A stretch of DNA of 64,000 bases from Actinomycetota bacterium (GTDB lineage Bacteria > Actinomycetota > Actinomycetes > S36-B12): assembly GCA_016717115.1 (NCBI GenBank), contig JADKGE010000003.1, positions 21,037 through 85,036 on the forward strand. Direction: 5' to 3'. Positions within the stretch are counted from its first letter, which is position 1; each line of letters opens with the position of its first letter. Position numbers and translations under genes: made by a program. Under the pieces are notes generated by a model. It had not been told where the DNA came from. It saw only the letters and a program-made list of their open reading frames with translations, and did not search any database. Positions 3,066 to 23,295 of this stretch are shown here, in pieces.

Positions 3066-3622
3066 CCTAGGCGCAGCAGGTCGATGACCATCGGCTGGTG
3101 CGGCCGTGCATGGTAGGTCTCCTCGAAGCCGTCCGTCGTCCACCCGAGCCGCTCGAAGAAGCGGACGTTGGCGATCTGGATGTGCGCCTTCATGATCCGA
3201 CCGCCGTGCTCGGCAGCGGTCGACACCGCCAGCCGGACGAGATCCGACCCGAGCTGGTAGACGCGGAACTCGGGCTCGACCGCGAGCCGGTCCCCCTGCC
3301 AGACGTCGCCGGTCCTGTCCAGGGGATAGAGGCGCACCGCACCGACGACGCGCGATTCCGTCGCGCCGACGAGGTGGATCGTGTCAATCCGCTCGTCGAA
3401 CTCGTCGCGGTCGGTGGCCGGGAAGATGGCCTGCTCGACGACGAACACCTGATGTCGAATGGCGAAGTGCTCGTCGAGGTCCTCCGGGGTGAGGGCAGCC
3501 CTGCACTCGGTCCGGAGGAGCGGGACATCGTCTAGGCGAGTGATGTCGGTCCTCGCCCGATGGTGACGGGAACGGCGGTCGGCGCCGGCTCGAGGGACTT
3601 CAGCCCCGAGCAGGCCTGGCAC
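3062..3622 (-). CDS. GNAT N-acetyltransferase, MSMEG_0567/Sll0786 (Nit1C) type
   Basis: [15 protein letters not shown]...VVGAVRLYP...WQGDRLAV...[14 protein letters not shown]. Lies directly downstream of the radical SAM gene. The GTG start at 3622 would overlap that gene by 91 nt, so the true start is uncertain. Confidence 0.7.
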
Positions 3623-4725: not shown

Positions 4726-4836
4726 TCTCGCGCTCCGTTCAGGTTGTGCCGCTTGAGACGACCCCCGCGGTGCCGCTAACTGGATTGATCGAAGGCAACA
4801 TCATAGGAAGGTTGACGGCAAATCGGATAGGAAATT

Positions 4837-5478
4837 TCACGTCGTCTTGTGTCGCCACTCGTCGGCGGTGGCCAGCCACGTGGCCCGGTCGGGGCACTCG
4901 GCCGTCTCGCGCCCGCCTGCGGGATCCACGAGAGTCACGCGAAAGACGGGTTCGCCGGTACTCGGCTGCATGGAGACGGATCGCACCAGTTCGGCGCCCG
5001 AGGCGATGTGGACCTCGACCCATTCCTGGGTGGGCGACATGCCCAGGGTGGCCGCGTCCGGCTCGGACACCGTGACCCAGGCCAGCCCCGCAGCTCGCGC
5101 CTCCTCGACCCTCGTGCTGGTGCGATCCAGCGCGGTGAGCATCAGCAGGGCCCGAAAGCGCTGCGACATGGCCGCATCGACCACCATGTCGAGGTCGAGG
5201 TCCGCGATGGGGAGGGCCTGGCGACTGGCGATCTCCCGGGCGTTGGCCACTGCGGCCGCGTGGCCGCTCTCGAGATCGGCGAGCGTCGAGTCGGCGAAGT
5301 AGGCCGTCAGTTGGCCGATGAGGGTGATGGCGCGCTGGTAGCGGTCGGCGTCGACCATGACGAGCGGGAAGACCTGGTCCTCGGCGGCTCGAAGGCGAGT
5401 CGCCAGCGCGCGGTACTCAGGGGGGATCGCCGACGACTGATCGGCTCCGAATGCGGGGGACGGCGGGATGTTGTTCAC
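4837..5478 (-). CDS. hypothetical protein heading the radical SAM-GNAT operon
   Basis: 213-aa ORF with very high GC3 throughout; I recognise no motif. The GTG start at 5478 lies inside the CACTATAGTG palindrome, so the start is uncertain. Confidence 0.55.
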   Translation of the reverse strand: MNNIPPSPAFGADQSSAIPPEYRALATRLRAAEDQVFPLVMVDADRYQRAITLIGQLTAYFADSTLADLESGHAAAVANAREIASRQALPIADLDLDMVVDAAMSQRFRALLMLTALDRTSTRVEEARAAGLAWVTVSEPDAATLGMSPTQEWVEVHIASGAELVRSVSMQPSTGEPVFRVTLVDPAGGRETAECPDRATWLATADEWRHKTT

Positions 5479-5556
5479 TATAGTGCTGGAACCCTCTCCT
5501 ATCCAGTACGGTTGACCACACCCTATAGGCGCGACTTGCAGTGAGGCGGTGATTCA

Positions 5557-6528
5557 GTGTCGACGACATCTGTCCTTCGCACGGTGGTCATCGCCCTCGG
5601 CGGCAATGCGATCACCGCCGAGGATCAATCCGGAACCTACGCCGAAATGCTGGTCAACTGCCAACGAATGGCGAAGGCGGTGAACGCACTGGTCGACGGC
5701 GGCTGGCGGGTCGTCGTGACCCATGGCAACGGCCCCCAGGTGGGCAACCTGTCCCTCCAGCAGGGTGCGGCCGAGCCCACCGTGCCCGCCCAGCCGCTGA
5801 GCTCGCTGGTGGCGATGACCCAGGGCTGGCTGGGCGGCCTCATCGAGCTGGCGCTGCGCAACACCGGCAGCGCCAGCATGCCGCCCGTCGTGTCGGTCGT
5901 GACGCACGTCGTCGTGGACCCGAGGGACCCCGGATTCCTGAAGTTGACGAAGCCGATCGGCCCCTTCTACGAGAAGGACGCGGCGCAGGCCAGGACGGAC
6001 GAGCTCGGGTGGCAGATGGTGGAGGACTCCGGCCGTGGGTACCGCCGGGTCGTCGCGTCGCCCCACCCCGTGTCGATGCTCGAATCAGACGCGATCGCCA
6101 CCCTCGTCGACAAGGGGTTCCTGGTCATCGCGGCGGGCGGTGGCGGCGTGCCCGTCATCAGGAGTCAAGGCCTCCTCCAGGGCGTCGATGCAGTGGTCGA
6201 CAAGGACCGCGCCGCGGCGATCCTGGCCGCTCAGCTGAAGGCCGACGCGCTGCTGCTGGTGACCGGCGTCGACTCCGTGCTCCTCGACTTCGGGAAGCCG
6301 ACACAGCGCGCACTCCACGATGTGGGAGCCGAGGAGATGCTCCGTCACAACGACGACGGGCAGTTCCCGTCCGGCAGCATGGGGCCCAAGGTGGAGGCGG
6401 CCGTGGAGTACCTCGGCCAGTGCAACGGCCAGGCCGTCATCACGTCGGTCGACAAGATGGTGCCGGCGCTCGAGGGGATGAAGGGCGTGGGCACGAGGAT
6501 TCGACGCACGACGGTGAGGGTTCCGTGA
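5557..6528 (+). CDS. arcC: carbamate kinase
   Basis: VVIALGGNAI...VVVTHGNGPQVGNL...; 323 aa, GTG start. Its stop overlaps the FdrA start (GTGA). Confidence 0.85.
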   Translation: MSTTSVLRTVVIALGGNAITAEDQSGTYAEMLVNCQRMAKAVNALVDGGWRVVVTHGNGPQVGNLSLQQGAAEPTVPAQPLSSLVAMTQGWLGGLIELALRNTGSASMPPVVSVVTHVVVDPRDPGFLKLTKPIGPFYEKDAAQARTDELGWQMVEDSGRGYRRVVASPHPVSMLESDAIATLVDKGFLVIAAGGGGVPVIRSQGLLQGVDAVVDKDRAAAILAAQLKADALLLVTGVDSVLLDFGKPTQRALHDVGAEEMLRHNDDGQFPSGSMGPKVEAAVEYLGQCNGQAVITSVDKMVPALEGMKGVGTRIRRTTVRVP

Positions 6529-8066
6529 CGCCTGTCCAGTCCGTCAAGCTGTTCAAGGACACCTACCTGGACTCCGTCCTCCAGCTCATGGGCACCCGTG
6601 CCATGGAGGGCATGTCCGGTGTCGGCTGGGCGGCGGTCGCCATGTCGACGGCCTCCAACGTCGAGACGCTCTCGGAGCGCGGCTTCCCGTCGACCGAGCT
6701 TGCCGGCGCGTCGCCCGGCGATCTGTTCATCGCGGTCGAGGCGGTCGATGAGCAGACGGCGGCCAGTGCCACCGGCGAGGCCGAAGTGGTCATGTTCTCT
6801 GCGAGGCAAGGGCGCGACACGAGCGGCCAGGCGGCGCCTCGCTCGCTGGAGGAGGCCCTGCGCCAGCAGCCGGCCTCGAACATCGCGGTCATCTCCGTGC
6901 CGGGCGACTATGCGGCCCTGGAGGCGCACAAGGCGCTGGCCAGCGGCCTGGACGTCCTGCTCTTCAGCGACAACGTCTCCCGCCAGGACGAGATCGAGCT
7001 GAAGGAGCACGCGCGGCTGCGCGATCGCCTGCTCATGGGCCCCGGCGCCGGGACGGCCATGCTCGGCGGCGTGGGACTGGCCTTCGCCAACGTCGTGCGC
7101 AGCGGACCGGTCGGCGTGATCGCCGCTGCGGGCACGGGCGCGCAGGAGGCCATGGCCCTGCTGGATCGCTGGGGTGTCGGCGTGTCCCATGTCATCGGCC
7201 TCGGTGGCCGCGACCTCAACGAGGACATCGGCGGGCGCATGGCGCGACAGGCCATCGCCTACCTGAAGGCCGACCCCGGCACGGAGGTCATCCTGTTCGT
7301 CTCGAAGCCGCCGGCTGCGGACGTCGCTCGCGACGTGCTGGCCCTGGCCGACGGCACGCCGCTGATCGCCGCCTTCATGGGGGTGGACACGGGCATGCCC
7401 GTGCCGACCGGCGTCGTCGTCACCGACACCCTCGAGGGAGGTGTGGTGAAGGCGCTGGAGGCGCTGGGCCGCGTGCCTCCGGACACCACGTCGCTCGTCG
7501 GCCCTTCGCTCGACGACGCGATCGCGCGGGTCGACGCCGACCGAACGACGATCCGTGGCCTGTACTCCGGTGGCACCCTCTGCTACGAGGCGCTCGTGCT
7601 GCTGGGCCGGCACTTCGGCGCGGTCTACTCGAACACCCCCGTCGACAAGACGCTGCGGACGCCCGCCCCGGAGCATTCGTCGATCCTCCTCGACCTCGGG
7701 GAGGAGGAGTACACCAAGGGGCGGCCGCATCCGATGATCGATCCGCAGGCGCGTGTCGAGATGCTCGAGGAGCTCGTCGACGACGACGACGTGGCGGTCA
7801 TCGTCATGGACGTCGTGCTCGGGTACGGCTCGCATCCCGACCCGGCGGGCGTGCTCGCTCCTGTCTGCGCGCGCATCATGGCCGACGGCGGCCCGCAGGT
7901 CGTCACATACGTCCTTGGCACAGACGGGGACCCGCAGCACTACCAGGCCCAGGTCGACGTGCTCACCGCCGTGGGATGCATCGTCACCGAGACCGCGGCG
8001 CGGGCCGCCCTCGCGTCGGCAGCCATCGCCGCGCGGAAGCCGGGCGTTGCTAGCGTCAGCCTGTGA
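6525..8066 (+). CDS. fdrA: FdrA family protein (succinyl-CoA-synthetase-alpha-like)
   Basis: GTG 6525 in frame within ORF 6009..8066. VKLFKDTYLDSVLQLM..., VISVPGDYAALEAHKALASGLDVLLFSDNV, GPGAGTAMLGGVGLAFAN, VIGLGGRDL. Confidence 0.8.
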   Translation: MTPVQSVKLFKDTYLDSVLQLMGTRAMEGMSGVGWAAVAMSTASNVETLSERGFPSTELAGASPGDLFIAVEAVDEQTAASATGEAEVVMFSARQGRDTSGQAAPRSLEEALRQQPASNIAVISVPGDYAALEAHKALASGLDVLLFSDNVSRQDEIELKEHARLRDRLLMGPGAGTAMLGGVGLAFANVVRSGPVGVIAAAGTGAQEAMALLDRWGVGVSHVIGLGGRDLNEDIGGRMARQAIAYLKADPGTEVILFVSKPPAADVARDVLALADGTPLIAAFMGVDTGMPVPTGVVVTDTLEGGVVKALEALGRVPPDTTSLVGPSLDDAIARVDADRTTIRGLYSGGTLCYEALVLLGRHFGAVYSNTPVDKTLRTPAPEHSSILLDLGEEEYTKGRPHPMIDPQARVEMLEELVDDDDVAVIVMDVVLGYGSHPDPAGVLAPVCARIMADGGPQVVTYVLGTDGDPQHYQAQVDVLTAVGCIVTETAARAALASAAIAARKPGVASVSL

Positions 8067-9229
8067 CAGACGCCCTGAAGGTCGCGGTCCTCACCTATTC
8101 GACCAAGCCCCGTGGTGGCGTCGTGCACTCGCTCAGCCTTGCCGAGGCCCTCGCCGCGCAGGGCGTCGACGTGCACCTCTTCGGTCTGGGGCCTGCCGAC
8201 GGCGAGTTCTTCCGGCCCACCACGGTCCCCTTCACGCTGTTCCCCGCTCCGGAGACCGCCGAGTCGCTCGAAGACAAGGTCTTCGCCTCGGTCGACGCCA
8301 TGGCGCTGGGGCTGAAGGGGCTGGACGCCGGGTTCGACATCCTCCATTCGCAGGACTGCATCTCCGCGCGGGCCGCCACCCGCGTGCGCGACGACGGCCT
8401 GAGCACGCCCGTCGTGCGGACCGTGCACCATGTCGACGACTTCACCACGCGGGCGCTCATCGACTGCCAGCGGCAGGCCATCCTCCAGCCCGATCACATC
8501 CTCGTGGTCAGCACGCGGTGGCAGGAGATCATGCTCGAGGAGTACGGGAGACGAGCCGACATCGTCCGCAACGGAGTCGATCCCGGCCGGTTCCCGGCGA
8601 TCACGGACGATAGGCGATCCGCACTGCGCGAGTCCGTGTCGGCGGGCGACCGTCGCGTGCTGCTCTCCATCGGAGGAATCGAGCCCCGCAAGGGGAGCAA
8701 CGAGCTGTTCGAGGCACTGGGCATCCTGAAGGAGCGCGGTCTGCGACCCGTCCTGGTCATGCTCGGCGGGCACTCGTTCCAGGACTATGCGGCGTACCGC
8801 GACGCGGCCCTCGCCCGCCTGCCGGAGCTCGGCCTCGAGCTGGGTGTGGACATCGTCCAGGTCGGCACGGTCGACGACGTGACGCTCGGGGAGTGGTACC
8901 GGGCGGCAGATGCTCTCGCGTTCCCGTCGGTCAAGGAGGGCTTCGGCCTGGTGGCACTGGAGGGCCAGGCGGCCGACCTGCCCGTGGTGGCCAGCAGCAT
9001 CCCGGTGTTCGCGGAATTCCTGACGGACGGCGAGAACGCGCTGCTCCCCGAGGTCGGCAACCCGATCGCGATCGCTGATGCGCTCGAGCGCGTGCTGACC
9101 GACTCCGACCTGCGAGCCCGACTCGTCGCGGGTGGCCGTGAGGTCGTGCCGAGATTCGGCTGGGACGCATCTGCCCGGCGACACATCGAGATCTACCGCG
9201 AGGTGCTGGCGGGTCGAGCTCAGTCCTGA
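8063..9229 (+). CDS. glycosyltransferase, MSMEG_0565 (Nit1C-associated) type
   Basis: VAVLTYSTKPRGGVVHSLSLAEALAAQGVDVHLF... with a GT4-like C-terminal half (EGFGLVALEG). GTG start overlaps the fdrA stop. Confidence 0.7.
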   Translation: MTDALKVAVLTYSTKPRGGVVHSLSLAEALAAQGVDVHLFGLGPADGEFFRPTTVPFTLFPAPETAESLEDKVFASVDAMALGLKGLDAGFDILHSQDCISARAATRVRDDGLSTPVVRTVHHVDDFTTRALIDCQRQAILQPDHILVVSTRWQEIMLEEYGRRADIVRNGVDPGRFPAITDDRRSALRESVSAGDRRVLLSIGGIEPRKGSNELFEALGILKERGLRPVLVMLGGHSFQDYAAYRDAALARLPELGLELGVDIVQVGTVDDVTLGEWYRAADALAFPSVKEGFGLVALEGQAADLPVVASSIPVFAEFLTDGENALLPEVGNPIAIADALERVLTDSDLRARLVAGGREVVPRFGWDASARRHIEIYREVLAGRAQS

Positions 9230-10224
9230 GCCCGCTCCAGCCCGGTGGCGGGAGTGTCCTGCGCGTCGATCAGGTGCCTGATCTCACCGTCCACGGCGAC
9301 GCTGATCACTCCCGTCTGGTCGATCACGCCCACCTTCGCTGCCGAGAGACCGGCGTCGACGAAGACGGAGATGCACTCCTGTGTCGTCTCCGGATCGCAC
9401 GTCAGCAGGAAGCCGAAGCAGGGGAAGCAGTTGAACCACTGGCCGAGGGGTACGTCGCGGGGGGTCGGGACGGCGTCCACGTCGATGATCACCCCGAACG
9501 ATCCCCACTCGAGCAGCATCGCGAGCGAGCCGACGAGGCCGGCCATGCTGATGTCCTTGGCTCCCCGGGCCAGTCCGCGGCTGGCGATCGCGGAGAACAG
9601 GCGCACGTCGTCCCCGAGTCGATCACCCCGCTCGTCGAAGGACGCGAAGAACGGGAAGTCCGAGCGCATGCGGCCATCGGTGCACGCTACGACGACGAGG
9701 TCCTGGCCGCTCGCGACATTCGTGGACGACAGCACGGTGTCTGCGTGACCCACGGCGAAGGCCGAGAGAGACGCCGGACCGTCGGTGATGGTGAGGTGAC
9801 CGCCGACGATGGGAACACGGTAGAGGGCGGATGCGTACCGCATGCCCTCCAGCACACTGCGCGCTGTCTGCCGCGAGGCGACCACGGTGTCGACGATGGC
9901 CAGGGGAAGGCCGCCCATGGCAGCAACGTCGTTGACGTTCGCGAGGACCGCCGCGATCCCCGCTCCGTAGGGATCGGCCGCCACGAACGGCGGCCAGATG
10001 GCCTCTCCGCAGGCGATCACGCTGGCACCAGCCACGGACACCACTGCGCCGTCGTCGCCGGGACCCTCGACCCAGCCCGACTCTCCGAGCACGTCACTGA
10101 CGAGCCGGATGTCGCGTTTCGCGGCGATCGACGGGTTGGAGAGCACCGCCTGGGCTATCTCGTCGAGAAGCTGCGCTGCAGAGTGCTGACCGCCCACGAC
10201 GCTCCGTTCCAGGGTGTCGGCCAC
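9220..10224 (-). CDS. AIR-synthase-related (PurM-like) protein, sll0787 type
   Basis: 334 aa. GPGDDGAVV, ANVNDVAAMGG, VPIVGGHLT, AKDISMAGLVGSL are PurM-superfamily patterns. Convergent 10-nt overlap with the glycosyltransferase. Confidence 0.7.
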   Translation of the reverse strand: MADTLERSVVGGQHSAAQLLDEIAQAVLSNPSIAAKRDIRLVSDVLGESGWVEGPGDDGAVVSVAGASVIACGEAIWPPFVAADPYGAGIAAVLANVNDVAAMGGLPLAIVDTVVASRQTARSVLEGMRYASALYRVPIVGGHLTITDGPASLSAFAVGHADTVLSSTNVASGQDLVVVACTDGRMRSDFPFFASFDERGDRLGDDVRLFSAIASRGLARGAKDISMAGLVGSLAMLLEWGSFGVIIDVDAVPTPRDVPLGQWFNCFPCFGFLLTCDPETTQECISVFVDAGLSAAKVGVIDQTGVISVAVDGEIRHLIDAQDTPATGLERAQD

Positions 10225-10292
10225 GACGAAGGCGACCGACGAAGTTCTTTCCTATAGTGAATCTTCTCCTAGGATAGTCTAGGATCCTGCGC

Positions 10293-11072
10293 GTGAAGCC
10301 GGATTTCCTGAGACTCCCCGAGGTGCCCGCCAAGCCTCGCACCGTGGGCGTCACGCACATGCTGGACAAGGGAATCCCGCTCAACACCACCGCCGCGATC
10401 CTGCGTTCCTACGCCGATCACATGGACTTCTGGAAGTTCGGCTGGGGCACCGCCTATGTGGAGAGCCAGCTGGCCGACAAGCTCGCCGTCCTGCACGAGC
10501 ACGACGTGGTCGCCTGTCTCGGTGGCACGCTCATGGAGATCGCGTGGGCGCAGAACGCGGTGGACGAATGCCTGGCCTGGGCTCGCCGTGTCGGGTTCCG
10601 CGCGGTCGAGGTGTCGCGGGGCAGCGTGCCGATGCCCCTGTCTGCCAAGGCGATGATCATCCGGCAGGCAGCACCGCACTTCACCGTGCTCGCCGAGACC
10701 GGATACAAGAGCGCCGAGCGGCTCATGTCTCTCGATGAGTGGTCGGCGGAGATCGTCGAGGACCTCGACAGCGGCGCCGAGTACATCGTCACGGAGGGCC
10801 GCGAGAGCGGCACGGTCGGCGTCTACGACCATGACGGCGAGCCCAAGCCCGAGGTCGTTCGCGCCGTGATCGAGGCCGCTGGTCTGGAACGCGCACTCTT
10901 CGAGGCCCCCCGCAAGAGCCAGCAGGCCTGGTTCATCAACGAGTTCGGACCCGACGTCAATCTCGGCAACATCCCGCCCGACGACGCGCTGGCCCTGCAC
11001 ACCCTGCGGCTGGGCCTTCGCGCGGACACGATCAGCATCACCACCACGACCGTCGAGTCAGTTCGACTGTAG
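10293..11072 (+). CDS. phosphosulfolactate synthase (ComA) family protein
   Basis: LRLPEVPAKPRTVGVTHMLDKG...DFWKFGWGTAYV...VEVSRGSV...YIVTEGRESGTVGVYD matches the ComA family pattern. GTG start. Confidence 0.7.
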   Translation: MKPDFLRLPEVPAKPRTVGVTHMLDKGIPLNTTAAILRSYADHMDFWKFGWGTAYVESQLADKLAVLHEHDVVACLGGTLMEIAWAQNAVDECLAWARRVGFRAVEVSRGSVPMPLSAKAMIIRQAAPHFTVLAETGYKSAERLMSLDEWSAEIVEDLDSGAEYIVTEGRESGTVGVYDHDGEPKPEVVRAVIEAAGLERALFEAPRKSQQAWFINEFGPDVNLGNIPPDDALALHTLRLGLRADTISITTTTVESVRL

Positions 11073-11118
11073 GTGTGGGCACCTTGGCCCCGCTCGGGAT
11101 CCTCGTCGTGGAACTGCC

Positions 11119-12450
11119 ATGACTGTGCGTCTCACCGAGTCCGCGATGTACCGGCACGCCTGGACCACTCCGTCGCTCGACGCGATCCTCGCGGAGGACG
11201 CACGACTGCGCACCTGGCTGCGCATCCTCGCTGTGCTGGCCGACTGCCAGGCACGGCTGGGGATCATCCCCGGGGCCGCGGCGACGGCGATCGCCGAGGA
11301 TGCCCAGGCGGATCGACTCGATCTCGAGGCGATCGCTGCGCGAACCCGGGAGTCGTCGCACAGCGTGCTGGGCCTGATCGAGGGGTTGCAGGCGACGCTC
11401 CCCGACCAGGCGCGGGAGTACGTGTACTACGGCATCACGGTCCAGGACCTCACGGACACCTGGTTCGGCCTGGTCATGCGCGACGTGACCGCAATCCTGC
11501 GAGCTGACCTCGTGCGCATCGAGACTGCCTGCCTGCGACTGGCCCACGAGCACCGCGCCACGGTCATGGCGGGACGTACGCACGGACAGGTCGGATCGCC
11601 CATCACCTTCGGCCTCAAGGCCGCGACGTGGGCCGACGAGACGGCGCGCAACATCGAACGGCTCGACGAGGGCGTGCGTCGCTGGGCGGTCGTGCAGCTG
11701 GCCGGGTCGACGGGGGGCCTGGCGTTCTTCGGCGAGCAGGGTGCCGAACTGAGGGCGCTGTTCAGCGGGGCCCTCGGCCTCGGCGACCCGGGCGTCTCCT
11801 GGACGTCGACGCGCGACCGCACCGCGGAGTTCGGCGCCACCCTGAGCCTGGTGACCGGGGCGCTGGCGCGCATCGGGAACGAGATCTACGAGCTCCAACG
11901 GCCGGAGATCGCCGAGCTCAGCGAACCCTTCAACAGTGCGGTCGTGGGCAGCATCACGATGCCGCACAAGCGCAACCCCGAGTACTGCGAGCACCTGGAC
12001 ACCCTGGCCCGGGTCGCGCGTGCAGCGGCCGGGGGCCTGCTGGAGGGAACGGCCGCGAGCCACGAGAGGGACGGCCGCGCCTGGAAGGCGGAGTGGGCCT
12101 TCCTGCCCGACGTGGCGTTGGCCGCCGGCACGTCGGCATCGCTCGGCGCCGAACTCCTCGAGGGTCTCGTGGTCCACCCGGAGGCCATGCTGCGCAACCT
12201 GGGCGACGACGGTTCATGGGCCTCGGAGCAGGTCCTCGTCCAGCTGTCGCGGCGGCTGGGCAAGCATCGTGCCCAGGCGCTGCTGCAGTCGGCCTTCGCG
12301 TCCGACGGGTCCGACGTGGCCACGACCATCGCGGTCGCCGCCGGAGTCGACGTCGCCGACGTGCAAGCCTGGATGGATGTCCCGAACACGACGACGGCGA
12401 CCGCCATGGTCGACGGCGTGGTCGCCCGGCTGGGCGGGCCATCCCGGTGA
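11119..12450 (+). CDS. fumarate-lyase superfamily enzyme (adenylosuccinate lyase / 3-carboxymuconate cycloisomerase-like)
   Basis: 443 aa. Signature loop GSITMPHKRNPEYCEH. RTHGQVGSPITFG. Confidence 0.75.
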   Translation: MTVRLTESAMYRHAWTTPSLDAILAEDARLRTWLRILAVLADCQARLGIIPGAAATAIAEDAQADRLDLEAIAARTRESSHSVLGLIEGLQATLPDQAREYVYYGITVQDLTDTWFGLVMRDVTAILRADLVRIETACLRLAHEHRATVMAGRTHGQVGSPITFGLKAATWADETARNIERLDEGVRRWAVVQLAGSTGGLAFFGEQGAELRALFSGALGLGDPGVSWTSTRDRTAEFGATLSLVTGALARIGNEIYELQRPEIAELSEPFNSAVVGSITMPHKRNPEYCEHLDTLARVARAAAGGLLEGTAASHERDGRAWKAEWAFLPDVALAAGTSASLGAELLEGLVVHPEAMLRNLGDDGSWASEQVLVQLSRRLGKHRAQALLQSAFASDGSDVATTIAVAAGVDVADVQAWMDVPNTTTATAMVDGVVARLGGPSR

Positions 12451-13409
12451 ACCCGACTGCCGCCTTCTCGCGCTACTCGCTGGGGCAGTTCCCCACCCCG
12501 CTGCATCGCCTGCACCGTCTGGAGCAGGCGCTCGGTGGCGGTCACCTGATGGTCAAGCGCGACGACCTCGCCGGCTTCGCCGTGGCCGGCAACAAGACTC
12601 GGCCGCTGGAGTTCCTCATCGGTGATGCCCTGACGTGCGGTGCCGAGGTCGTCGTCAGCGGAGGCGCACCCAAGTCCAACTTCGCTTCCGCGCTGGCGGC
12701 CGCGACTCGATCGGCGGGGCTCGAGTGCGAGCTGATGGTCCCGGGGGGCAAGCTCGACGACCCCCCGGTGCCCTTGGCCATGGCCATCGCGAGCGGCGCC
12801 ACCTTGCGCTTCACGGGCGGTGATCGGGAGGAGCTCGACACGGCGATCGACGAACGAGTCCGGGAGCTGGCTGCCGCGGGCCGACGCGCGTACGCCGTGC
12901 CCCGAGGCGGAGCCTGCGCTGTCGGAGCACTGGGCTTCGCCAATGCCGCCTGCGAGCTCGCAGAGCAGGGGGTGCCCGACGATGCCGCCATCGTGCTGCC
13001 CGTCGGCTCAGGCGCCTCCGTCGCCGGACTGATCGCCGGGCGAGCGGCCGTCGGGGCGGGATGGTCCGTGGCAGGGGTGTCCGTGAGTCGGCCCATCGAC
13101 GAGATGCACGAGCAGACGTCCTCCATCGCCGCTGCCTGCAGCCGGAGCATGCTCACTGCCGAGCCGCACGATGCACTGCTCGTCGATGCCACTGTCCCGG
13201 GCATGGCCGCCGTGACGGAGGGCGAGCGCGTCGATGCGCTGCTGGCCTTCGACACGGAGGGCCTGCTCTTCGACCCCTCCTACGGGGTGAAGGCGCTCCA
13301 CCACGCGCTGACGATGATCAGGCAGGGTTCGACCGAACCGATCATCCTGTGGCACACGGGCGGCCTGACGTCGGCGATTCCGTTGATCGCACGCGAAGGT
13401 GCGTCATGA
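12447..13409 (+). CDS. PLP-dependent enzyme, ACC deaminase / D-cysteine desulfhydrase / CuyA family
   Basis: GTG 12447 (GTGA overlap with the previous stop), in frame within ORF 11628..13409. FPTPLHRL...VKRDDLAGFAVAGNKTRPLEFL contains the PLP-lysine motif. Confidence 0.75.
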   Translation: MNPTAAFSRYSLGQFPTPLHRLHRLEQALGGGHLMVKRDDLAGFAVAGNKTRPLEFLIGDALTCGAEVVVSGGAPKSNFASALAAATRSAGLECELMVPGGKLDDPPVPLAMAIASGATLRFTGGDREELDTAIDERVRELAAAGRRAYAVPRGGACAVGALGFANAACELAEQGVPDDAAIVLPVGSGASVAGLIAGRAAVGAGWSVAGVSVSRPIDEMHEQTSSIAAACSRSMLTAEPHDALLVDATVPGMAAVTEGERVDALLAFDTEGLLFDPSYGVKALHHALTMIRQGSTEPIILWHTGGLTSAIPLIAREGAS

Positions 13410-14884
13410 CCATCGACGGCGCCGACGAGCTGGCACGGGCCGGCTACGCGTGGGAGATCGCCGACGCGCCGCTGCTGCACGAGCCGCTGACTCTCGCGGA
13501 CCTCGCCCACGTGCTCGAGCTGGTCCGCATCAAGGCGATCCCGCCCGCGTCGGCTCGCGCGCTGGCAGGTGAGCTCCTTGCCATGCTCGCCGCCCCGCCC
13601 GAGTCCGTCGACTACTCGCCGGCCTTCGGGGAGATGTACTCCTCGCGCGAGCACCACCTCGCGAACCGGATAGGGGACGATGCGGGCTGGCTGCACTCGG
13701 GCAGGACCAGGCGCGAGGCGATGCGGATCGCCTATCGGATCCTGGTGCGGCGTCATGTCGTCGACCTGGTCGGCGGGGCCGCGGGGCTCGCCGAGGCGCT
13801 GTGCGACCAGGCCGCCGAGGACCTCGACAGCGTGATGCCCGACTACACCTACCTGCAGCCGGCCGAGCCGACCACGTTCGGCCACTACCTCGCGTCGTTC
13901 GTCGATCCGGTGCTCCGCGACGGAGGGCGGCTCGAGCGGGAGTTCGCCGACGTCAATGCCAGTCCCATGGGCTCCGGCGCAGCGAGCGGGTCCGCCCTCC
14001 TGCGTGAGCGCACCGTGGCCGGCAACGACCTCGGCTTCGACGGCGCCATCGACCACGTCCGCGATGCCATGTGGCAGAGCGACCCGTTCACCCACGTGCT
14101 CCTCGCCGCCACCACGCTTGTCCTCGGTCAGGACAAGCTGGCAGAGGACCTCGAGGTCTTCGCCAGTCGCGAGTTCGACTTCGTCCAGCTCGGTGACGGA
14201 CTGGTGCGTCCGAGCGTGCTGATGCCGCAGAAGCGCAACCCGTACGCGCTCACCGTCATCCGGGGGATGTCGGGAATCCTCATCGGGCGCGCGACCGGGC
14301 AGCTGGCCGTGTCCAAGTCGCCGTCCGCACGGAGCGATCTGTACATCTACGCGTATGGCGAGGTGCCCCGCGCGCTCGATCTGGCGACGCGCACGACGGA
14401 GCTGTCGACAGCAGTCGTGCGCACGCTGCGGGTCAGCGCCTCGCGCATGAGCGCGGCGCTGGTCGGCCGCCACACCGGTGCCGCCGAGACGGCCGCCTAC
14501 CTGGTGCGCGAGTTCGGAGTCGACTACCGCACGGCTCACTCGATCGTCTCGCAGGCGGTGCGTGCGGCCGGAGCGGACGCGCGAGAGGTCACGGCTGCCG
14601 ACATCGCGACGGCGGCGCGGACCGCGGGCATCGCGCCCGTCGTCGTCACGGACGACCGGCTGCGTGCGCTGGCCGACCCGCGAGGCGTGGTCGCATCGCA
14701 CGACGGACTGGGCGGCTCGGCGGCGGAGTCGATGACGGCGTTCATCGCGGAGCGGCGAATGCGCGCCGAGGAGCTGGCCACATGGGCGCAGGGCACGAGA
14801 CGCCGCCTCGACGACGGTGAGGCGAGCGTGGTCCGACGGGCACGGGAACTAGTGGGCGAGTACGACGACAAGGAGATCTCATGA
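13406..14884 (+). CDS. fumarate-lyase superfamily enzyme (argininosuccinate lyase-like)
   Basis: ATG 13406 (ATGA overlap), in frame within ORF 13061..14884. YLQPAEPTTFGHY, signature SVLMPQKRNPYAL. Confidence 0.75.
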   Translation: MTIDGADELARAGYAWEIADAPLLHEPLTLADLAHVLELVRIKAIPPASARALAGELLAMLAAPPESVDYSPAFGEMYSSREHHLANRIGDDAGWLHSGRTRREAMRIAYRILVRRHVVDLVGGAAGLAEALCDQAAEDLDSVMPDYTYLQPAEPTTFGHYLASFVDPVLRDGGRLEREFADVNASPMGSGAASGSALLRERTVAGNDLGFDGAIDHVRDAMWQSDPFTHVLLAATTLVLGQDKLAEDLEVFASREFDFVQLGDGLVRPSVLMPQKRNPYALTVIRGMSGILIGRATGQLAVSKSPSARSDLYIYAYGEVPRALDLATRTTELSTAVVRTLRVSASRMSAALVGRHTGAAETAAYLVREFGVDYRTAHSIVSQAVRAAGADAREVTAADIATAARTAGIAPVVVTDDRLRALADPRGVVASHDGLGGSAAESMTAFIAERRMRAEELATWAQGTRRRLDDGEASVVRRARELVGEYDDKEIS

Positions 14885-16296
14885 GTCCAGTACGGGAACT
14901 GCCGAGCGAGGCGCACGTGATCAACCTCGGCCTCCCGGACTTCGCCGCCGCCGTCGCCGCGCAGGGGGCGGAGGCCATCCAGGTCGACTGGAGCCTTCCG
15001 GCCGGCGGAGATCCCACCAGCGTCGCGGCCCTCACTGCGCTGTACGGCGTGCGGTCGATCTCCATCGACGACGCCAACGCCGAGATCGTGCGTCGCCTCG
15101 ACAAGGGCACGCCGTTCCTCACCGGCGTGGCTCCGGCCGGGGAGGTCGTTCCGGGCCTGGGCGACCGCATGCTGCTGCATGCCGGTCCGCCCATCGCCTA
15201 CGAGCAGGTGTGCGATCCGATGCGCCGGTCGATGCGCGCCGCCGTCGTGGCGGAGGGGTGGGCCGCAGACCTCGGTGCCGCCGAGGAGCTGCTCGCCCGA
15301 GGGGACATCGCGCTCGACGCCGCCAACGACCATGCGACGGTCGTTCCCATGGTGACGGCGCTGGGCCCGACCACACCGGTCTGGATCGCGGACAACGCCG
15401 ATGCCGGCACGCGCGGCTTCGCGCCGGTCAACCAGGGCCCCGGTGACGTGGCGTGGTTCGGTCGCGAGAGCCAGGGGGCGATCGACCGACTGGTGTTCCT
15501 GCGCGACGTGGTCCAGCCGAGATTCGCCCGGATCCTGGACGAGGTGGGTCCGATCGACATCATGTCGCTGGCGAGCCAGGGCGTGCAGATGGGCGACGAC
15601 GTGCACATCCGGACCCAGGCAACGACGAACCTGTTGATCCGCAACGTCCTTCCCGCGATCTCCCGGCTCGGAAAGGACCCGGAGTCGGTGGCGATGTCCG
15701 AGTTCCTGGCCACGTCGCACCTGTTCTTCCTCACCATCGCGATGGCCGGCGCGAAGTCGCTGACGCTCGCGGCCGAGCAGGTCGCGGGAGGAACCGTCGT
15801 CACCACGATGGCCCGCAACGGCACCACGTTCGGTGTGAAGCTCGCCGGCTCTGCGACCTGGCACGTGTGCGACGCGCCGCCCGTCGGCGATGCCCTCTAC
15901 TACTCGGGCTACAGCGAGTCGGACGCGGCGAAGGATGTCGGCGACAGCGCCGTCCTCGAGCTGGTCGGCCTCGGTGGCGCTGCCGCGGCCGCCTCGCCGG
16001 CGGTGGCGGGGTTCCTCGGCGGCTCGATGGACGACGCGGTCCGTGCGACCAGCGAGATGATCACCATCTGCCTGTCCGAGAGCACCCGGTTCAAGCTGCC
16101 CATCCTCGGCTTCCGGGGAAGCCCGCTCGGAGTGGATGTCCGACGAGTCGTCGAGACCGGGGTGCGACCGAAGGTGACCACCGGCGTCCTGCACGTCAGC
16201 TCAGGTGTCGGCCAGATCGGCGCCGGGGTCGCGACCGCACCGCTCGAGGGGTTCCGTGAGGCGCTCCTCCTGCTCGCGGCCGGTCCTCGGGACTGA
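14881..16296 (+). CDS. DUF1116 (YlbE-like) protein
   Basis: 471 aa with ATGA overlap to the previous gene. NDHATVVPMVTALGP...MARNGTTFGVKL...ELVGLGGAAAAASPAV is the pattern I associate with YlbE/DUF1116. Confidence 0.65.
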   Translation: MSPVRELPSEAHVINLGLPDFAAAVAAQGAEAIQVDWSLPAGGDPTSVAALTALYGVRSISIDDANAEIVRRLDKGTPFLTGVAPAGEVVPGLGDRMLLHAGPPIAYEQVCDPMRRSMRAAVVAEGWAADLGAAEELLARGDIALDAANDHATVVPMVTALGPTTPVWIADNADAGTRGFAPVNQGPGDVAWFGRESQGAIDRLVFLRDVVQPRFARILDEVGPIDIMSLASQGVQMGDDVHIRTQATTNLLIRNVLPAISRLGKDPESVAMSEFLATSHLFFLTIAMAGAKSLTLAAEQVAGGTVVTTMARNGTTFGVKLAGSATWHVCDAPPVGDALYYSGYSESDAAKDVGDSAVLELVGLGGAAAAASPAVAGFLGGSMDDAVRATSEMITICLSESTRFKLPILGFRGSPLGVDVRRVVETGVRPKVTTGVLHVSSGVGQIGAGVATAPLEGFREALLLLAAGPRD

Positions 16297-16301
16297 CCTC
16301 G

Positions 16302-17132
16302 ATGCCGACCCCCGGTCGCGTGCTCGGCATCGGCGATGTCGCCTTGCGCGCGCTGGCATCGGGTCGCGAGGGCGAGGTCGTGGCGGTGTTCTCACGTGCC
16401 GCATACCTGGACCTCGCCGGAGACATCGCCGTGCTCGTCCTCGGGGACGTCCCGAACGGACCCCTTCATGTGCGACTCGACCGACTGCCGCGACTTCGAC
16501 GCGGCGCCCGGGTCCGTTGCCGCTCAGGCGTGGTCGCGATCGAGGAGCACAGATGGCTCACTCCGTCGGCGGCGTGGCGGCCCGAGCCTCCTGTTGACGT
16601 CGTGTCGGCCGAGCCGATCGTCAGCGCCGTCGTCCGTCATCGACCCGTGCTCGACATGGGGACCGGCAGCGTGGTCGACATCGACGGCTGGCTGGTGCCG
16701 TTGCTGGCTCATGGCGACGTCGCGGGAGCCTGCGCACGCCTCTTCGGGCGAGGGGCGGGCCTGACTCCTGCGGGCGACGACGTGGCCGCCGGCATCCTGC
16801 TCGTCGAGTGCCTGTCGGGCTCCGCTGATCGAACGAGCCTGGGTCTCCTCGCGACCCGTGCGCCGACGCACGCGATCTCCCGTGCCTTCCTGCGAGCTGC
16901 GGCCGAGGGCCAGTGCATCGAGCCCGTCCACACGCTGCTGCGGGCAGCCAGTGCCGGCGACGAGGGCGTGGCCACCGACGCGGTGGAGCAGCTCAGCCGC
17001 GTCGGTCACACGTCGGGATTGGACCTCGCGGCCGGAGTCCGTGCCGCGCTGGTCGCCTTGGCCGCGCGGGCCGATTCCGCCGACCGCACCCCGCGCGACA
17101 CGATCAGCATCCACGCCCACAAGGTGCCGTAG
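16302..17132 (+). CDS. DUF2877 (YlbF-like) protein
   Basis: 276 aa. GRGAGLTPAGDDVAAGILL and VGHTSGLDL motifs. The last 127 nt overlap the convergent NiCoT gene. Confidence 0.65.
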   Translation: MPTPGRVLGIGDVALRALASGREGEVVAVFSRAAYLDLAGDIAVLVLGDVPNGPLHVRLDRLPRLRRGARVRCRSGVVAIEEHRWLTPSAAWRPEPPVDVVSAEPIVSAVVRHRPVLDMGTGSVVDIDGWLVPLLAHGDVAGACARLFGRGAGLTPAGDDVAAGILLVECLSGSADRTSLGLLATRAPTHAISRAFLRAAAEGQCIEPVHTLLRAASAGDEGVATDAVEQLSRVGHTSGLDLAAGVRAALVALAARADSADRTPRDTISIHAHKVP

Positions 17133-18088
17133 GCGACCACGATCACGTAGCCGACGAGCTCGAAGTGCTGGCTCACCTCGGCCAGCGGCGCGAGGAACGC
17201 GATCCCGAACTGGCTGACGAGGAGCCCCGCCGCGTAGATGAGGCCCACCGTGATGGCGATGCATGCGGTCAGCAGCGTCATCACCATGTTGAACGTGAGG
17301 CGTCGTCGGGGCTGCGTTCGATTGGAACCGTAGACGCTGATCATCAGCAGTGAGTTGAGGGTGTCGAACAGGGTCATGCCCGCGGCGAAGAGGATCGGCA
17401 GGGCAAGCAAGGACATCAGGGGCATCGTCCCCGAGACGGCCGCAGTGGCCGACAGGCCGAGCAGGGCGATCTCCGATGCCGTCTCCAGTCCGAGCCCGAA
17501 GACGAAGCCGATGGGGAACATCCGCCAGCTCGCCGTCACCGACGACTGCAGCCGGCTGCCGAAGAGTCGGCTGAGCACGCTCCTGGCATTGAGGATCTCG
17601 TCGATCTGCTCGTTGCTCAGGTCGACGCCGCGGTGGGCCTGCCGGGCCGTCCAGACGCGACGGAGCACGCGCAGGTTGAGGACGCCGACGAAGAGGAGGA
17701 AGGATGCTGCGACGAGTGCCGAGAAGGTGCCGCCGATCCCGCGCACCGCAGGGATGACGGTCTCGCTCGCGGAGGCGCTGGCCACGGCCACGACCACGAA
17801 GAGGACGAACACGACGCTCGAGTGGCCGAGGGCGAAGAACAGGCCGAGTCCGGTCGGACGCTGACCCTGGCGAACGAGCAGCCGAGTGCAGTCGTCGATC
17901 GTGGCGAGGTGGTCGGCGTCGAACGCATGACGCACGCCGAGAACGTAGGCCAGGGTGCCTGCCCCGACGTAGGCGGCCGTCGCACTCCCGGCGCTGGCCG
18001 AGTACGCGTACAGACCCCAGCCCGCGAGGTTCAGCGCGATGACGACCGCGATGACCAGGCGGATCTGCCGGCGGCCCTGGGTTCTCAT
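17006..18088 (-). CDS. NiCoT (HoxN/HupN/NixA) nickel/cobalt permease
   Basis: Signature RHAFDADHLATIDD and FFALGHSSVV. Multiple TM segments. ATG 18088 preceded by GAGGAG (the ORF track start 18157 is less likely). Confidence 0.85.
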   Translation of the reverse strand: MRTQGRRQIRLVIAVVIALNLAGWGLYAYSASAGSATAAYVGAGTLAYVLGVRHAFDADHLATIDDCTRLLVRQGQRPTGLGLFFALGHSSVVFVLFVVVAVASASASETVIPAVRGIGGTFSALVAASFLLFVGVLNLRVLRRVWTARQAHRGVDLSNEQIDEILNARSVLSRLFGSRLQSSVTASWRMFPIGFVFGLGLETASEIALLGLSATAAVSGTMPLMSLLALPILFAAGMTLFDTLNSLLMISVYGSNRTQPRRRLTFNMVMTLLTACIAITVGLIYAAGLLVSQFGIAFLAPLAEVSQHFELVGYVIVVAYGTLWAWMLIVSRGVRSAESARAAKATSAARTPAARSNPDV

Positions 18089-18162
18089 CCCGATCTCCTC
18101 TGCCGGCAATGACCTGAACGCACTCGCGAGGGCTGTCATAGTAAGGCACACGCTCATTCACT

Positions 18163-18606
18163 ATGGGTGATTCGCAGACTCCGATGACGGGCTGGAGGGA
18201 CGACGTGGCCGACGACAGGACCGTGAGCGCGCGGTGGCTCGGTGGGTACCAGGTCGACGTCGTCACGGGAGACTTCACGGTCCGCGTCGACGAACCCGAG
18301 CGCGTCGGTGGCACAGACACCGGCCCGCAGCCGACCGACCTGCTGCTCGCGTCGGTCGCCTCGTGCTTCGTGCTCTCGCTGGCCTGGGCTGCCAAGAAGC
18401 GCGAGATGGAGGTGCCTGCCATCTCCGTCGAGGTGACCGGGACCTACGAGGGCCCGCGCTTCTCCTCGATGGTGATCGCGGTGTCGATGCCGGTGCCCGA
18501 CGACGTGGCAGAGCGACTGATCCAGTCAGCCGAGCGGGTCTGCTACGTGACGAACACGCTCAAGCGCGCGCCGGACATCACGGTGCGGCGCGTCGACGCG
18601 ATCTAG
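18163..18606 (+). CDS. OsmC/Ohr family protein
   Basis: 147 aa. GTDTGPQPTDLLLASVASCFVLSL...AERVCYVTNTL, with the two conserved Cys regions of OsmC. Confidence 0.75.
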   Translation: MGDSQTPMTGWRDDVADDRTVSARWLGGYQVDVVTGDFTVRVDEPERVGGTDTGPQPTDLLLASVASCFVLSLAWAAKKREMEVPAISVEVTGTYEGPRFSSMVIAVSMPVPDDVAERLIQSAERVCYVTNTLKRAPDITVRRVDAI

Positions 18607-19232
18607 CCGTTGCGCAGGGCCACCCACACGACCTCGGCGGGCTTCTTGCTCGCGTTCTCCCAGTGGTGGGGGACATCGCCGGAGAAGTGCAGGGAGTCAC
18701 CCTCGGTGAGGACGAAGTCCTGCTCGCCGACGTGGAAACGCACCTGACCACGGAGCACGTGGACCAGCTCCTCGCCCGGATGCTTGAGCGGCTTCTCCCC
18801 GCTGTTCGCACCGGGCGCCATGCTGGCCACCGCTGCCGCCGTCTGGAACTGCCGGTAGGAGCCGGTGATCCCGGACAGGGACAGACCGGTGTGCGGAGTG
18901 AACACGGCACGCCGCTCATCGGCGGCGGTGAAGTGGACGGGCTCCGGGTGCGACTCCTCCTCCTGCACGAAGTAGCTGACGGGGACGCCGAGGGCGGTAC
19001 CGAGCTTGAGGAGTGTCGTGATGGTGGGCACCATGCCGTTGCGTTCCATCTTGTGGATGGCCGCCGCAGACACGTCGCTGATGACGGCCAGCTGCTGGAG
19101 CGACAGCCCCTGCGCCTTGCGGAGCTCGGCGATCTTGGGACCCACCATGCTGACGATCTCTTCGACCTGGAGGGCTTGGGGCGCGGGCGCCGTCACCGCT
19201 CTCGGCTTGCGTACGGCGGCTTTGGTGGCCAA
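18603..19232 (-). CDS. XRE-family HTH regulator with C-terminal cupin domain
   Basis: HTH IAELRKAQGLSLQQLAVISDVSAAAIHKMERN. Cupin GEELVHVLRG...EGDSLHF. TTG 19232 has GGAGGA 5 nt upstream. The track start 19370 and ATG 19148 are alternatives. Confidence 0.75.
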   Translation of the reverse strand: MATKAAVRKPRAVTAPAPQALQVEEIVSMVGPKIAELRKAQGLSLQQLAVISDVSAAAIHKMERNGMVPTITTLLKLGTALGVPVSYFVQEEESHPEPVHFTAADERRAVFTPHTGLSLSGITGSYRQFQTAAAVASMAPGANSGEKPLKHPGEELVHVLRGQVRFHVGEQDFVLTEGDSLHFSGDVPHHWENASKKPAEVVWVALRNG

Positions 19233-19426
19233 CGGATCCTCCGGCGGGTGCGCTCTTCGTGCGTCCGGCCAGACTACCGTCCGACCGCGCGGGTTCGGCG
19301 TCGAAGCCGCGACGCGCAGTGCCTGACGGGTCTCGCCGAACCGGTTGACGGGCAACCGTGCTTCCAGCATAGTGAACGTCTAGTCATTCATCGTGTACGC
19401 GAGTACGCAACGGGAGGGACAGCCGC

Positions 19427-20770
19427 GTGGCCCAAAGGGTAGTGGTGATCGGTGGTGGCGGAGGCGGACTTGGCGCAGCCGGTGGGGCCAAGGCGGTCGA
19501 TCCCTCGGCCCAGGTCACCGTCTATACCGAGTACGAGGACGTCGCCTACAGCCCGTGTGGCATCCCGTTCGTCCATGGCAAGGAGATCCCGAGCTTCGAG
19601 GCGCTCTTCCTGGCGGAGAAGCAGGCCTACGTGGACGCAGGCATCGACGTGCACTATGAGACGCGCGTGTCGTCGATCGACCGGGCGAACAGGACGATCA
19701 CCGTCGACGGCGAGGGAACGGTCGGCTACGACTCCCTGGTGATCTCGACGGGTTTCGTCTACGCGGACCCGGGGGTACCGGGTGCGGGCCTTGACGGCCT
19801 GTACTACGTGAAGAACATCCGTGACGCCATGGAGTGGGACAAGCGACTGGACACGGTCAAGAAGGCCGTCGTCGTCGAGGCCGGACCGCTCGGCATCGAG
19901 ATGGTCACAGCCCTGGCACACCGTGGCATCGAGACCCACGTCATCGATCCCAACCCGTGGTGCCTGGGCGAACTGCTCGACCCCGACATCGCCGAGGTCG
20001 TGCAGGAGTCGTGGACCGAGCTCGGCATCACCATGCACTGGAACACCACGCTGCTGGGCTTCGTGGACAACGGCAGCGGATCGGTCGGCGGCGTCTCGAC
20101 GTCGGGCGGCACGATCGACTGCGACCTGGTCGTCGTCGCGACCCACAAGCAGCCGAACAACGCTCTCGCGGTGGCGGCGGGCATCGCCATCGGCACTACC
20201 GGTGGGGTGATCGTCGACGAGACGATGAAGACCTCCGATCCCAGCATCTGGGCCTGCGGGGACGTCTGCGAGATCCCGCACGGCAACGCATCCCTCCCGC
20301 TCCAGGGGCTGACCGGCAGCCATGCGTACGCGCAGGGCAAGGTCGCCGGCGCCAACGCGGCCGGTGGCAGCCGCGTCTACAACTCGGTGTACATCCCGTG
20401 GGGCATGGTCGCGGGCAAGTGGATGATCGGCGGGGCCGCCTTCGGAGAGGTCGCTGCCGATGCGCTGGGCATGCCCTACGTCCTTGGCGTCGCCGAGGGC
20501 ATCTCGCGTGCTCGCTACTACCCCGGCGTGAAGAAGGTGAAGGTCAAGCTGCTCGCCGAGCCGGGAACCCTTCGCCTGATCGGTGCCCAGATGATCGGTG
20601 GCGAGGGGATCAAGGAGAGAGCCGACTTCCTCGGTGTAGCCGTCAAGAAGGGCCTGACACTCTTCGACCTGGCCACGATGGAGAACGTGTACTCGCCCCC
20701 GATCGGCGCGCTGAACGAGCCGATCGCCGTGGCTGCGCAGAACGGCGTTGCGGCGTCCCGGAGCGCCTGA
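19427..20770 (+). CDS. pyridine nucleotide-disulfide oxidoreductase (CoA-disulfide reductase / NADH oxidase-like)
   Basis: VVVIGGGGGGLGAAG dinucleotide fold. Single redox Cys in VAYSPCGIPF. 447 aa. GTG start preceded by GGGAGGG. Confidence 0.75.
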   Translation: MAQRVVVIGGGGGGLGAAGGAKAVDPSAQVTVYTEYEDVAYSPCGIPFVHGKEIPSFEALFLAEKQAYVDAGIDVHYETRVSSIDRANRTITVDGEGTVGYDSLVISTGFVYADPGVPGAGLDGLYYVKNIRDAMEWDKRLDTVKKAVVVEAGPLGIEMVTALAHRGIETHVIDPNPWCLGELLDPDIAEVVQESWTELGITMHWNTTLLGFVDNGSGSVGGVSTSGGTIDCDLVVVATHKQPNNALAVAAGIAIGTTGGVIVDETMKTSDPSIWACGDVCEIPHGNASLPLQGLTGSHAYAQGKVAGANAAGGSRVYNSVYIPWGMVAGKWMIGGAAFGEVAADALGMPYVLGVAEGISRARYYPGVKKVKVKLLAEPGTLRLIGAQMIGGEGIKERADFLGVAVKKGLTLFDLATMENVYSPPIGALNEPIAVAAQNGVAASRSA

Positions 20771-20771
20771 C

Positions 20772-21023
20772 ATGACGAAGCTGGCCACGTGGCTCCGGAC
20801 GAATTCCCAGCACTACCTGTTGCGTGACTCCCAGGCGCGTATAGCCAGGAAGTACGGCATCGCCCCACCGGACACCAGGGGTTCGTTCTTCTGGACCAAG
20901 GTGTTCGTCCCGGTGTACCGGGTGCTCCCGTGGGGGCTGCGTTCCAGCGTGATGGCAGCCATGCCGGGCAGCCATCGCAAGCGTTGGTCGAAACAAGCTC
21001 CGCCCGCTGGTGCGGCGGTTTAG
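20772..21023 (+). CDS. 83-aa conserved hypothetical protein
   Basis: ATG 20772 lies 1 nt after the oxidoreductase stop (in frame in ORF 20748..21023): MTKLATWLRTNSQHYLLRDSQARIARKYG...FFWTKVFVPVYRVLPW. Confidence 0.5.
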   Translation: MTKLATWLRTNSQHYLLRDSQARIARKYGIAPPDTRGSFFWTKVFVPVYRVLPWGLRSSVMAAMPGSHRKRWSKQAPPAGAAV

Positions 21024-21062
21024 GTTGGTCACCACTCACATGCAAGGAAAACTGGAGGGTTC

Positions 21063-21551: not shown

Positions 21552-21556
21552 CCTCA

Positions 21557-21605: not shown

Positions 21606-21632
21606 CGACCGCGGCAGCCATGGGAGGCAAGC

Positions 21633-22912: not shown

Positions 22913-23295
<383 letters not shown>

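Follow-up and report, generated by a model that had tools for sequence, protein, structure and literature searches.

We report that an 18-bp near-palindromic motif marks the operon heads of a conserved gene cluster in a 64-kb stretch of an Actinomycetota bacterium (contig JADKGE010000003.1; this whole stretch is hereafter called the window), and that across about 80 related loci from several phyla the motif is restricted to the operon heads of the same cluster. The cluster brings together Nit1C-type genes, genes resembling those for coenzyme M biosynthesis and for oxamate carbamoyltransferase, and a nitrile hydratase, and it encodes a regulator of the XRE-cupin family. We propose, with a probability of roughly 70%, that the motif is the operator of this XRE-cupin protein, which would bind it as a dimer, repress the units of the cluster together and be released by a ligand of its cupin domain. 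Binding, repression and ligand release are all predictions made from sequence.

The motif came to light through an exact 8-letter word, ATAGTGAA, which a first-pass annotation of the window had placed at four positions and nowhere else, with an expectation of less than one by chance. An exact search of both strands of the 64 kb agrees, giving four matches only, at 5474-5481 (-), 10254-10261 (+), 18157-18164 (-) and 19369-19376 (+), where 100 dinucleotide-preserving shuffles gave a mean of 0.16 and a maximum of 2. Each copy occupies one divergent intergenic region of the cluster (4/4). When one mismatch is allowed, the window holds 17 matches against 7.5 expected. Other details of that annotation also stand: the base composition it had assumed fits a measured G+C content of ~67%, and both the palindrome CACTATAGTG at the first site (5476-5485) and a near-copy, ATAGTAA (18138-18144), can be read in the sequence. 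When the four window sites were compared with one another, no repeat longer than the motif was found to be common to them all, which rules out a mobile repeat as the source of the word; a known RNA element was also ruled out, Rfam families being absent at the four sites.

The promoters do share a word, as had been claimed, but comparative motif search puts the unit at 18 bp and not at 8. For this comparison 80 related loci were fetched with the XcbC-like protein of the cluster as query, and the whole gene set is syntenic in them; their hosts are mostly Actinomycetota, and three loci are proteobacterial, from Ruegeria (L048), Silicimonas (L074) and Paraburkholderia (L062). The exact word occurs 46 times in 1.4 Mb of these loci, mostly in gaps upstream of cluster genes, and an alignment anchored on it adds a conserved T at -6, an A at -3, and a C and a G directly after the word. 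De novo Gibbs sampling of 50 divergent gaps adjoining the XRE-cupin gene, run with no prior pattern, returned caTtcAgcATAGTgAACG as the best motif (20.5 bits); it was recovered in 47/50 of these orthologous gaps, and 48/50 contain a site of at least 15 bits. Over 122 distinct sites, the consensus is C-R-T-t-y-A-s-n-A-T-A-G-T-n-R-A-C-G, an 18-bp near-palindrome in which ATAGTGAA makes up positions 9-16, that is, the centre and the right arm. A9 and T10 are invariant, T13 is present in 117/122 sites and A16 in 120/122, and the columns mirror one another with correlations of 0.49-1.0, column 8 versus column 11 being the exception. The outer arms, CRT and ACG, lie 6-9 bp from the centre, mirror each other and are conserved equally to the core. 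Such an 18-bp palindrome has the shape expected for the site of a dimeric helix-turn-helix (HTH) protein rather than for that of a sigma factor. An independent de novo search, carried out on 45 gaps between the AIR-synthase-like gene and comA, yielded TGTCGgAAAGTGAAC, which faces ComA from ~45 nt upstream and shares the right arm of the operator.

The motif is also highly specific for the cluster. With a matrix built solely from regulator-adjacent sites and a threshold of 14 bits, 169 sites are detected across 1.50 Mb, compared with 3 in a reversed-sequence control; 159 of them fall in the 336 kb of non-genic DNA that lies no further than 1 kb from cluster genes, 3 inside mapped cluster genes (877 kb) and 4 in flanks more than 1 kb away from any cluster gene (267 kb). 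Nearly all lie at operon heads of this one conserved cluster, both in Actinomycetota and in the three proteobacterial loci: between carbamate kinase and the hypothetical/radical SAM genes, between the XRE-cupin gene and a CoADR-like flavoprotein gene or nitrile hydratase beta, between the AIR-synthase-like gene and comA, and upstream of OsmC. The motif's presence at equivalent operon heads in most of the 80 loci, and its rarity outside the cluster, support the earlier proposal that these genes form a single putative regulon.

This distribution bears on two other explanations. In the first, the word would be no more than a strong -10 element of the housekeeping type, set in a favoured downstream context, and would have no dedicated regulator, as might be suggested by the A and T of ATAGT, which match -11 and -7 and are invariant or nearly so, and by two window copies that obey -35/-10 spacing. 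We regard this as very improbable: sigma contacts cannot account for mirrored outer arms that are as conserved as the core, the remaining 40 kb of the window beyond the cluster holds no exact copy of ATAGTGAA, the 267 kb of far flanks, which necessarily contain many promoters, give only the 4 matches, and the same motif is kept in Proteobacteria. The second and main rival is that the site is the operator of a regulator encoded outside the cluster, for instance a global nitrogen or stress regulator that also controls other genes. The literature (e.g., PMC4222082) points to a response of Nit1C-type genes of Mycolicibacterium smegmatis and Synechocystis to nitrogen starvation via global regulators, and one strong site does lie beyond the cluster, at 36935. 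This possibility is weakened, however, because the motif travels with the cluster across phyla, into Alpha- and Betaproteobacteria (L048, L074 and L062) where actinobacterial global regulators are not expected, and because the far flanks are nearly site-free; the strongest and most conserved site, moreover, lies upstream of the XRE-cupin gene. The consensus sites of GlnR and AmtR are not known to resemble the 18-bp palindrome. We therefore judge an outside regulator unlikely.

The XRE-cupin protein is instead the best candidate for the binder. Its gene (18603..19232, - strand) encodes an HTH_3 domain (residues 34-88, 45 bits against a Pfam cut-off of 23) and a Cupin_2 domain (residues 136-204, 68 bits against 27.2), a pair also found in the orthologue of L081. 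No other regulator turned up among the 22 conserved cluster genes that were mapped, and the strongest, most conserved site sits upstream of the XRE-cupin gene itself; both observations favour the first-pass annotation's choice of this protein as the likely binder. Across 54 orthologues, proteobacterial ones included, conservation of the HTH region (SLQQLA...VSAAAIHKIE...MVPTITTLLK) is 90% or more, which fits a conserved operator, and the motif is inherited together with the regulator. No copy of the gene was found in the fetched flank of 26 loci, of which ~9 are short truncated contigs and most others were fetched only about as far as the relevant side. One such apparent absence was resolved in Nocardioides guangzhouensis, where the gene sits a short way past the limit of the original fetch; it is divergent from the CoADR-like gene, and the gap that separates the two holds a 24-bit site. 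The 21.5-kb locus of this species has four sites of at least 12 bits, all in gaps at gene starts: three are in divergent cluster gaps and the fourth is between the regulator's end and a neighbouring amidohydrolase gene.

Two further observations concern the regulator. A plasmid of Methylocystis iwaonis (L082, NZ_CP143315.1, 174102-202728) carries a 64%-identical XRE-cupin gene next to a nitrilase-type Nit1C set, a ComA/Xcb-like operon and CoADR-, DsrE- and DUF1116-type genes. This regulator family thus occurs with the nitrilase form of the cluster as well as with the nitrile hydratase form; a single strong site, of 19.7 bits, was found there, near the regulator. Operators reading ATAGTTGAC (L024, L027, L029, L031, L040, L041, L060, L069 and L071) go with the helix VS(P/T)AAIHKVEQG, a variant of VSAAAIHKIER. 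Protein and site may be co-varying here, but since phylogeny confounds the association, we do not count it as evidence.

At the divergent promoter region between the XRE-cupin gene and the CoADR-like gene, the putative operator O1 (CTTCCAGCATAGTGAACG, 19361..19378, + strand, 23.1 bits) holds the word at 19369-19376. A promoter scan predicts here a sigma-70-type promoter for the CoADR-DsrE-nitrile hydratase operon, TTGACG-17-CATAGT (19345..19373, + strand), with its -10 box inside O1, and in the gap between carbamate kinase and the hypothetical gene it finds TGGATA-17-TATAGT (5505-5477, minus strand). Both places show sigma-70 spacing (16-18 nt) with the site over the -10 box, which points to the ATAGT core as the -10 box at these two sites. 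The suggestion that the word may be a promoter, or an operator overlapping the -10 box, thus receives support, as the site would cover the -10 hexamer 17 nt after TTGACG. Among 48 orthologous XRE-cupin|CoADR promoters, TTGAC stands 16-18 nt upstream in 17/48 and 19-21 nt upstream in 11/48 more. At several sites the -35 region is variable while the element around -10 is highly conserved, a combination that could also arise if the cluster had an alternative sigma factor of its own that recognises these promoters. Yet no sigma homologue turned up among the 22 conserved cluster genes, nor in L081, the sole locus whose genes were all called; the dyad symmetry speaks against such a promoter, and a canonical TTGAC -35 element is found at housekeeping spacing at many sites, leaving this explanation extremely improbable.

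A de novo search of the 45 nt that follow O1 revealed a second element, ctATgGTGtAyG, at a fixed offset in 34/38 loci, starting 8-9 nt past the first site. In the window, it corresponds to an auxiliary box, O2 (AGTCATTCATCGTGTACG, 19382..19399, + strand), whose centre is 21 bp downstream of that of O1 in the predicted 5' leader; the two centres are 20-21 bp apart in 39/48 loci, or about two helical turns. Two window promoters have a second box, the XRE-cupin/CoADR promoter and, with a weak one, that of comA.

The same geometry helps to weigh whether the XRE-cupin protein, if it binds, would activate or play a dual role. The window sites before comA and before the gene for a hypothetical 213-aa protein have weak left arms and weak or absent -35 elements, as is typical of promoters that need help. 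At the best-defined promoters, by contrast, the site lies over the spacer, -10 and start region and not at -40 to -60, the second box sits in the leader, and all characterised Pseudomonas members inhibit (PMC7901475), so that we hold activation or a dual role to be improbable. The promoter geometry, with the site over the -10 box, is the only feature that speaks for repression. Under the repressor reading that we favour, an XRE-cupin dimer would bind each 18-bp site, with two dimers side by side where a second box exists, and the second box 21 bp downstream would reinforce repression at the regulator's own divergent promoter. With the -10 hexamer lying under the operator, the protein, once bound, would deny RNA polymerase access to the promoter. 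All seven transcription units, the regulator's own included, would be repressed together, and a small metabolite sensed by the cupin domain would free the protein from DNA.

This scheme is reminiscent of the XRE-cupin regulators of Pseudomonas aeruginosa, a family comprising PauR, PsdR, ErfA and five others, of which all characterised members are inhibitors: they inhibit transcription locally and with high specificity, binding palindromic sites as dimers and probably acting by promoter occlusion (Trouillon et al., 2021; PMC7901475). Like them, the window regulator combines HTH_3 with Cupin_2 and its gene adjoins its predicted metabolic targets, and the site is a palindrome, implying a dimer, and lies on a promoter, implying occlusion, here judged from the DNA alone. 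Unlike the P. aeruginosa proteins, for which one or two units are typical, the window regulator has a predicted regulon of seven transcription units; the operator sequence is also different and the hosts are mostly Actinomycetota. Our literature search found no publication linking an XRE-cupin regulator to nitrile hydratase or to the cluster, and no description of the operator. The best-scoring named NCBIfam model for the window regulator is PuuR (E = 1.5e-22), the putrescine-responsive regulator of Escherichia coli. Orthology with PuuR was rejected, since at 80 bits the protein falls far short of the 211 bits that the equivalog model (NF007408) demands, and the two are relatives only. PuuR is a repressor of the puu genes that is released by a pathway metabolite (as cited in PMC7901475). 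Unlike its targets, those in the window are unrelated to putrescine use. One PuuR site reportedly contains ATAATGAAC, which is close to ATAGTGAAC. The closest solved structure by sequence is PDB 1Y9Q, an HTH_3-family protein with the XRE-cupin fold that aligns over both domains with low similarity (E = 5e-9); the entry names the family only and gives neither a function nor a DNA site.

Several points weigh against an operator of the XRE-cupin protein that is confined to the cluster. Specificity was gauged on the window and on the flanks of the related loci, and the window itself contains a strong match outside the cluster, TATTCCCCATAGTGGACA at 36935-36952 (-), which scores 22.9 bits and is the sole matrix match in the 40 kb beyond the cluster. 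The left arm is weak in three of the four window sites, which reach only 11.5-15.5 bits. Any tendency of the ATAGT strand to face the downstream gene falls short of significance in clean co-directional contexts (11 vs 5, p = 0.21); the crude count of 38 vs 32, which is confounded by unmapped genes, was set aside. Metatranscriptome contigs from eight runs indicate that the cluster is partly expressed but provide no usable 5' ends. Finally, at site 1 the 213-aa gene has no canonical in-frame start other than a GTG inside the motif, so that the operator there may sit on the start codon rather than on a -10 box, with the promoter further upstream at CCTATAGG. As for the setting of the match at 36935-36952, it is flanked on one side by a MoeA-like gene and on the other by arm-type repeats belonging to an integrase island; a tRNA was looked for at this 36.9-kb site and none was found, and no obvious target gene is nearby.

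Beyond O1, the window has three putative operators. The one at site 1, in the gap between the hypothetical-rSAM (radical SAM)-GNAT operon and the carbamate kinase operon, reads CCAGCACTATAGTGAACA (5472..5489, - strand, 14.8 bits) and contains the word at 5474-5481; the equivalent carbamate kinase gap carries a site in more than 30 related loci. By the matrix, no separate site precedes the radical SAM gene inside this first operon. The second palindrome of the gap, CCTATAGG (5523..5530), was read from the sequence and does not score as an operator with the matrix. A single metatranscriptome contig (run X26; window 5534-5744) begins at 5534, immediately past CCTATAGG and 23 nt ahead of the start of carbamate kinase. 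This start hints that CCTATAGG could possibly be the -10 box of the carbamate kinase operon.

The site between the AIR-synthase-like gene and comA, TCTTTCCTATAGTGAATC (10246..10263, + strand, 11.5 bits, with the word at 10254-10261), is oriented with ATAGT facing ComA and is conserved in L001. A weak second box, CTCCTAGGATAGTCTAGG (10266..10283, + strand, 6.7 bits), lies 20 bp downstream of this operator as a putative counterpart of O2; in L001, tcctagcatagtctagg is found in the same place.

In the gap between NiCoT and OsmC, the putative operator AATCACCCATAGTGAATG (18155..18172, - strand, 15.5 bits, with the word at 18157-18164) has its ATAGT facing NiCoT. This site is strong (at least 14 bits) only in the window and in L018 (14.2 bits), while L002-L005, L007 and L009 show weak look-alikes of 8-12 bits in the same gap and L001 and L020 none; no alignment was obtained for the NiCoT/OsmC gaps of the window, L001, L018 and L020. 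The near-copy ATAGTAA (18138..18144, + strand), which was read from the sequence and gives no matrix match of at least 3 bits, faces OsmC and is possibly a -10 box for osmC. The longest open reading frames of NiCoT and OsmC begin at or inside the motif region. Starts supported by a ribosome-binding site are ATG 18088 for NiCoT (AGGAGA 5 bases upstream) and GTG 18205 for OsmC (GGAGGG 5 bases upstream), and the OsmC start context in L018 is the same as in the window. With these starts, the gap measures ~116 nt and contains both ATAGT boxes, which would then act as face-to-face -10 elements.

The gene identities proposed in the first-pass annotation were confirmed with NCBIfam and Pfam. Nit1C-type members, assigned with these two databases, are the radical SAM, GNAT, AIR-synthase-like, glycosyltransferase and MSMEG_0572 genes; further members encode carbamate kinase, FdrA/AllF, AllG, AllH, ComA, NiCoT, OsmC, the CoADR-like flavoprotein and nitrile hydratase, together with XcbD-, XcbE- and XcbC-like enzymes, none of which reaches its NCBIfam cut-off. 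The alpha subunit of the nitrile hydratase reads VCTLCSC, which we take to be the signature of the cobalt type. Beside the regulator gene, the predicted targets lie on both strands. Operon 1 (3062..5478, -) encodes the hypothetical 213-aa protein, the MSMEG_0568 radical SAM protein and the GNAT protein, and operon 2 (5557..9229, +) carbamate kinase, FdrA/AllF and the MSMEG_0565 glycosyltransferase, both identified with NCBIfam. Target 3 (9220..10224, -; NCBIfam) is the sll0787-type AIR-synthase-like gene, and operon 4 (10293..17132, +; NCBIfam and Pfam) encodes ComA, the XcbD-, XcbE- and XcbC-like enzymes, AllG (DUF1116) and AllH (DUF2877). Target 5 (17006..18088, -; NCBIfam) is the NiCoT nickel/cobalt transporter, for which the ribosome-binding site makes ATG 18088 the likely start, and target 6 (18205..18606, +; NCBIfam) is the OsmC-like gene, whose likely GTG start at 18205 is supported by the ribosome-binding site and by L018. 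Operon 7 (19427..23295, +; NCBIfam) comprises the CoADR-like flavoprotein, the MSMEG_0572/DsrE-like protein, nitrile hydratase beta and alpha, and an accessory protein. The ComA-XcbD/E/C-like part of operon 4 (10293-14884) resembles bacterial coenzyme M biosynthesis genes and is syntenic with the Nit1C-type, AllF/G/H-like and nitrile hydratase genes in the 80 loci, which span several phyla.

We further raise the possibility, on a tentative footing, that regulator and operator form a self-contained portable switch, that the regulon bounds a single undescribed pathway, and that the cupin ligand is the substrate or product of this pathway. A9 and T13 of the motif double as two key -10 bases, so that each site would carry its own core promoter, and this may explain how a seven-unit regulon has moved intact between Actinomycetota and Proteobacteria, the Methylocystis plasmid with its nitrilase form of the cluster being one instance. 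If so, the pathway would join Nit1C-type, coenzyme-M-biosynthesis-like and oxamate-carbamoyltransferase-like enzymes to nitrile hydratase. The Nit1C-type set and its ComA/Xcb-like, AllF/G/H-like, CoADR/DsrE-like and nitrile hydratase partners have no agreed function. A shared operator shows which genes would switch together and thereby delimits one pathway unit of ~20 genes, conserved across many Actinomycetota of freshwater, soil and wastewater. Whatever ligand detaches the regulator from the 18-mer should be a metabolite of the pathway, and a reporter combining promoter and regulator offers a possible screen. Seen purely as a mode of regulation, a promoter with a local repressor site is nothing unusual; its value here would lie in delimiting an unsolved pathway.

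Two minor observations concern the far end of the nitrile hydratase operon. The gene for a DUF7714 protein, which in most relatives lies within the ComA operon, is found there in the window (23325-24254, -) and in L001, on the opposite strand, and this relocated gene has no operator upstream in either. Wastewater and freshwater metatranscriptome contigs cover parts of operon 7, and at the end of the accessory gene a (CACGAC)n repeat (23260-23292) attracts many unrelated RNA contigs, up to a depth of 182 in one bin, so that the read depth at these positions is an artefact.

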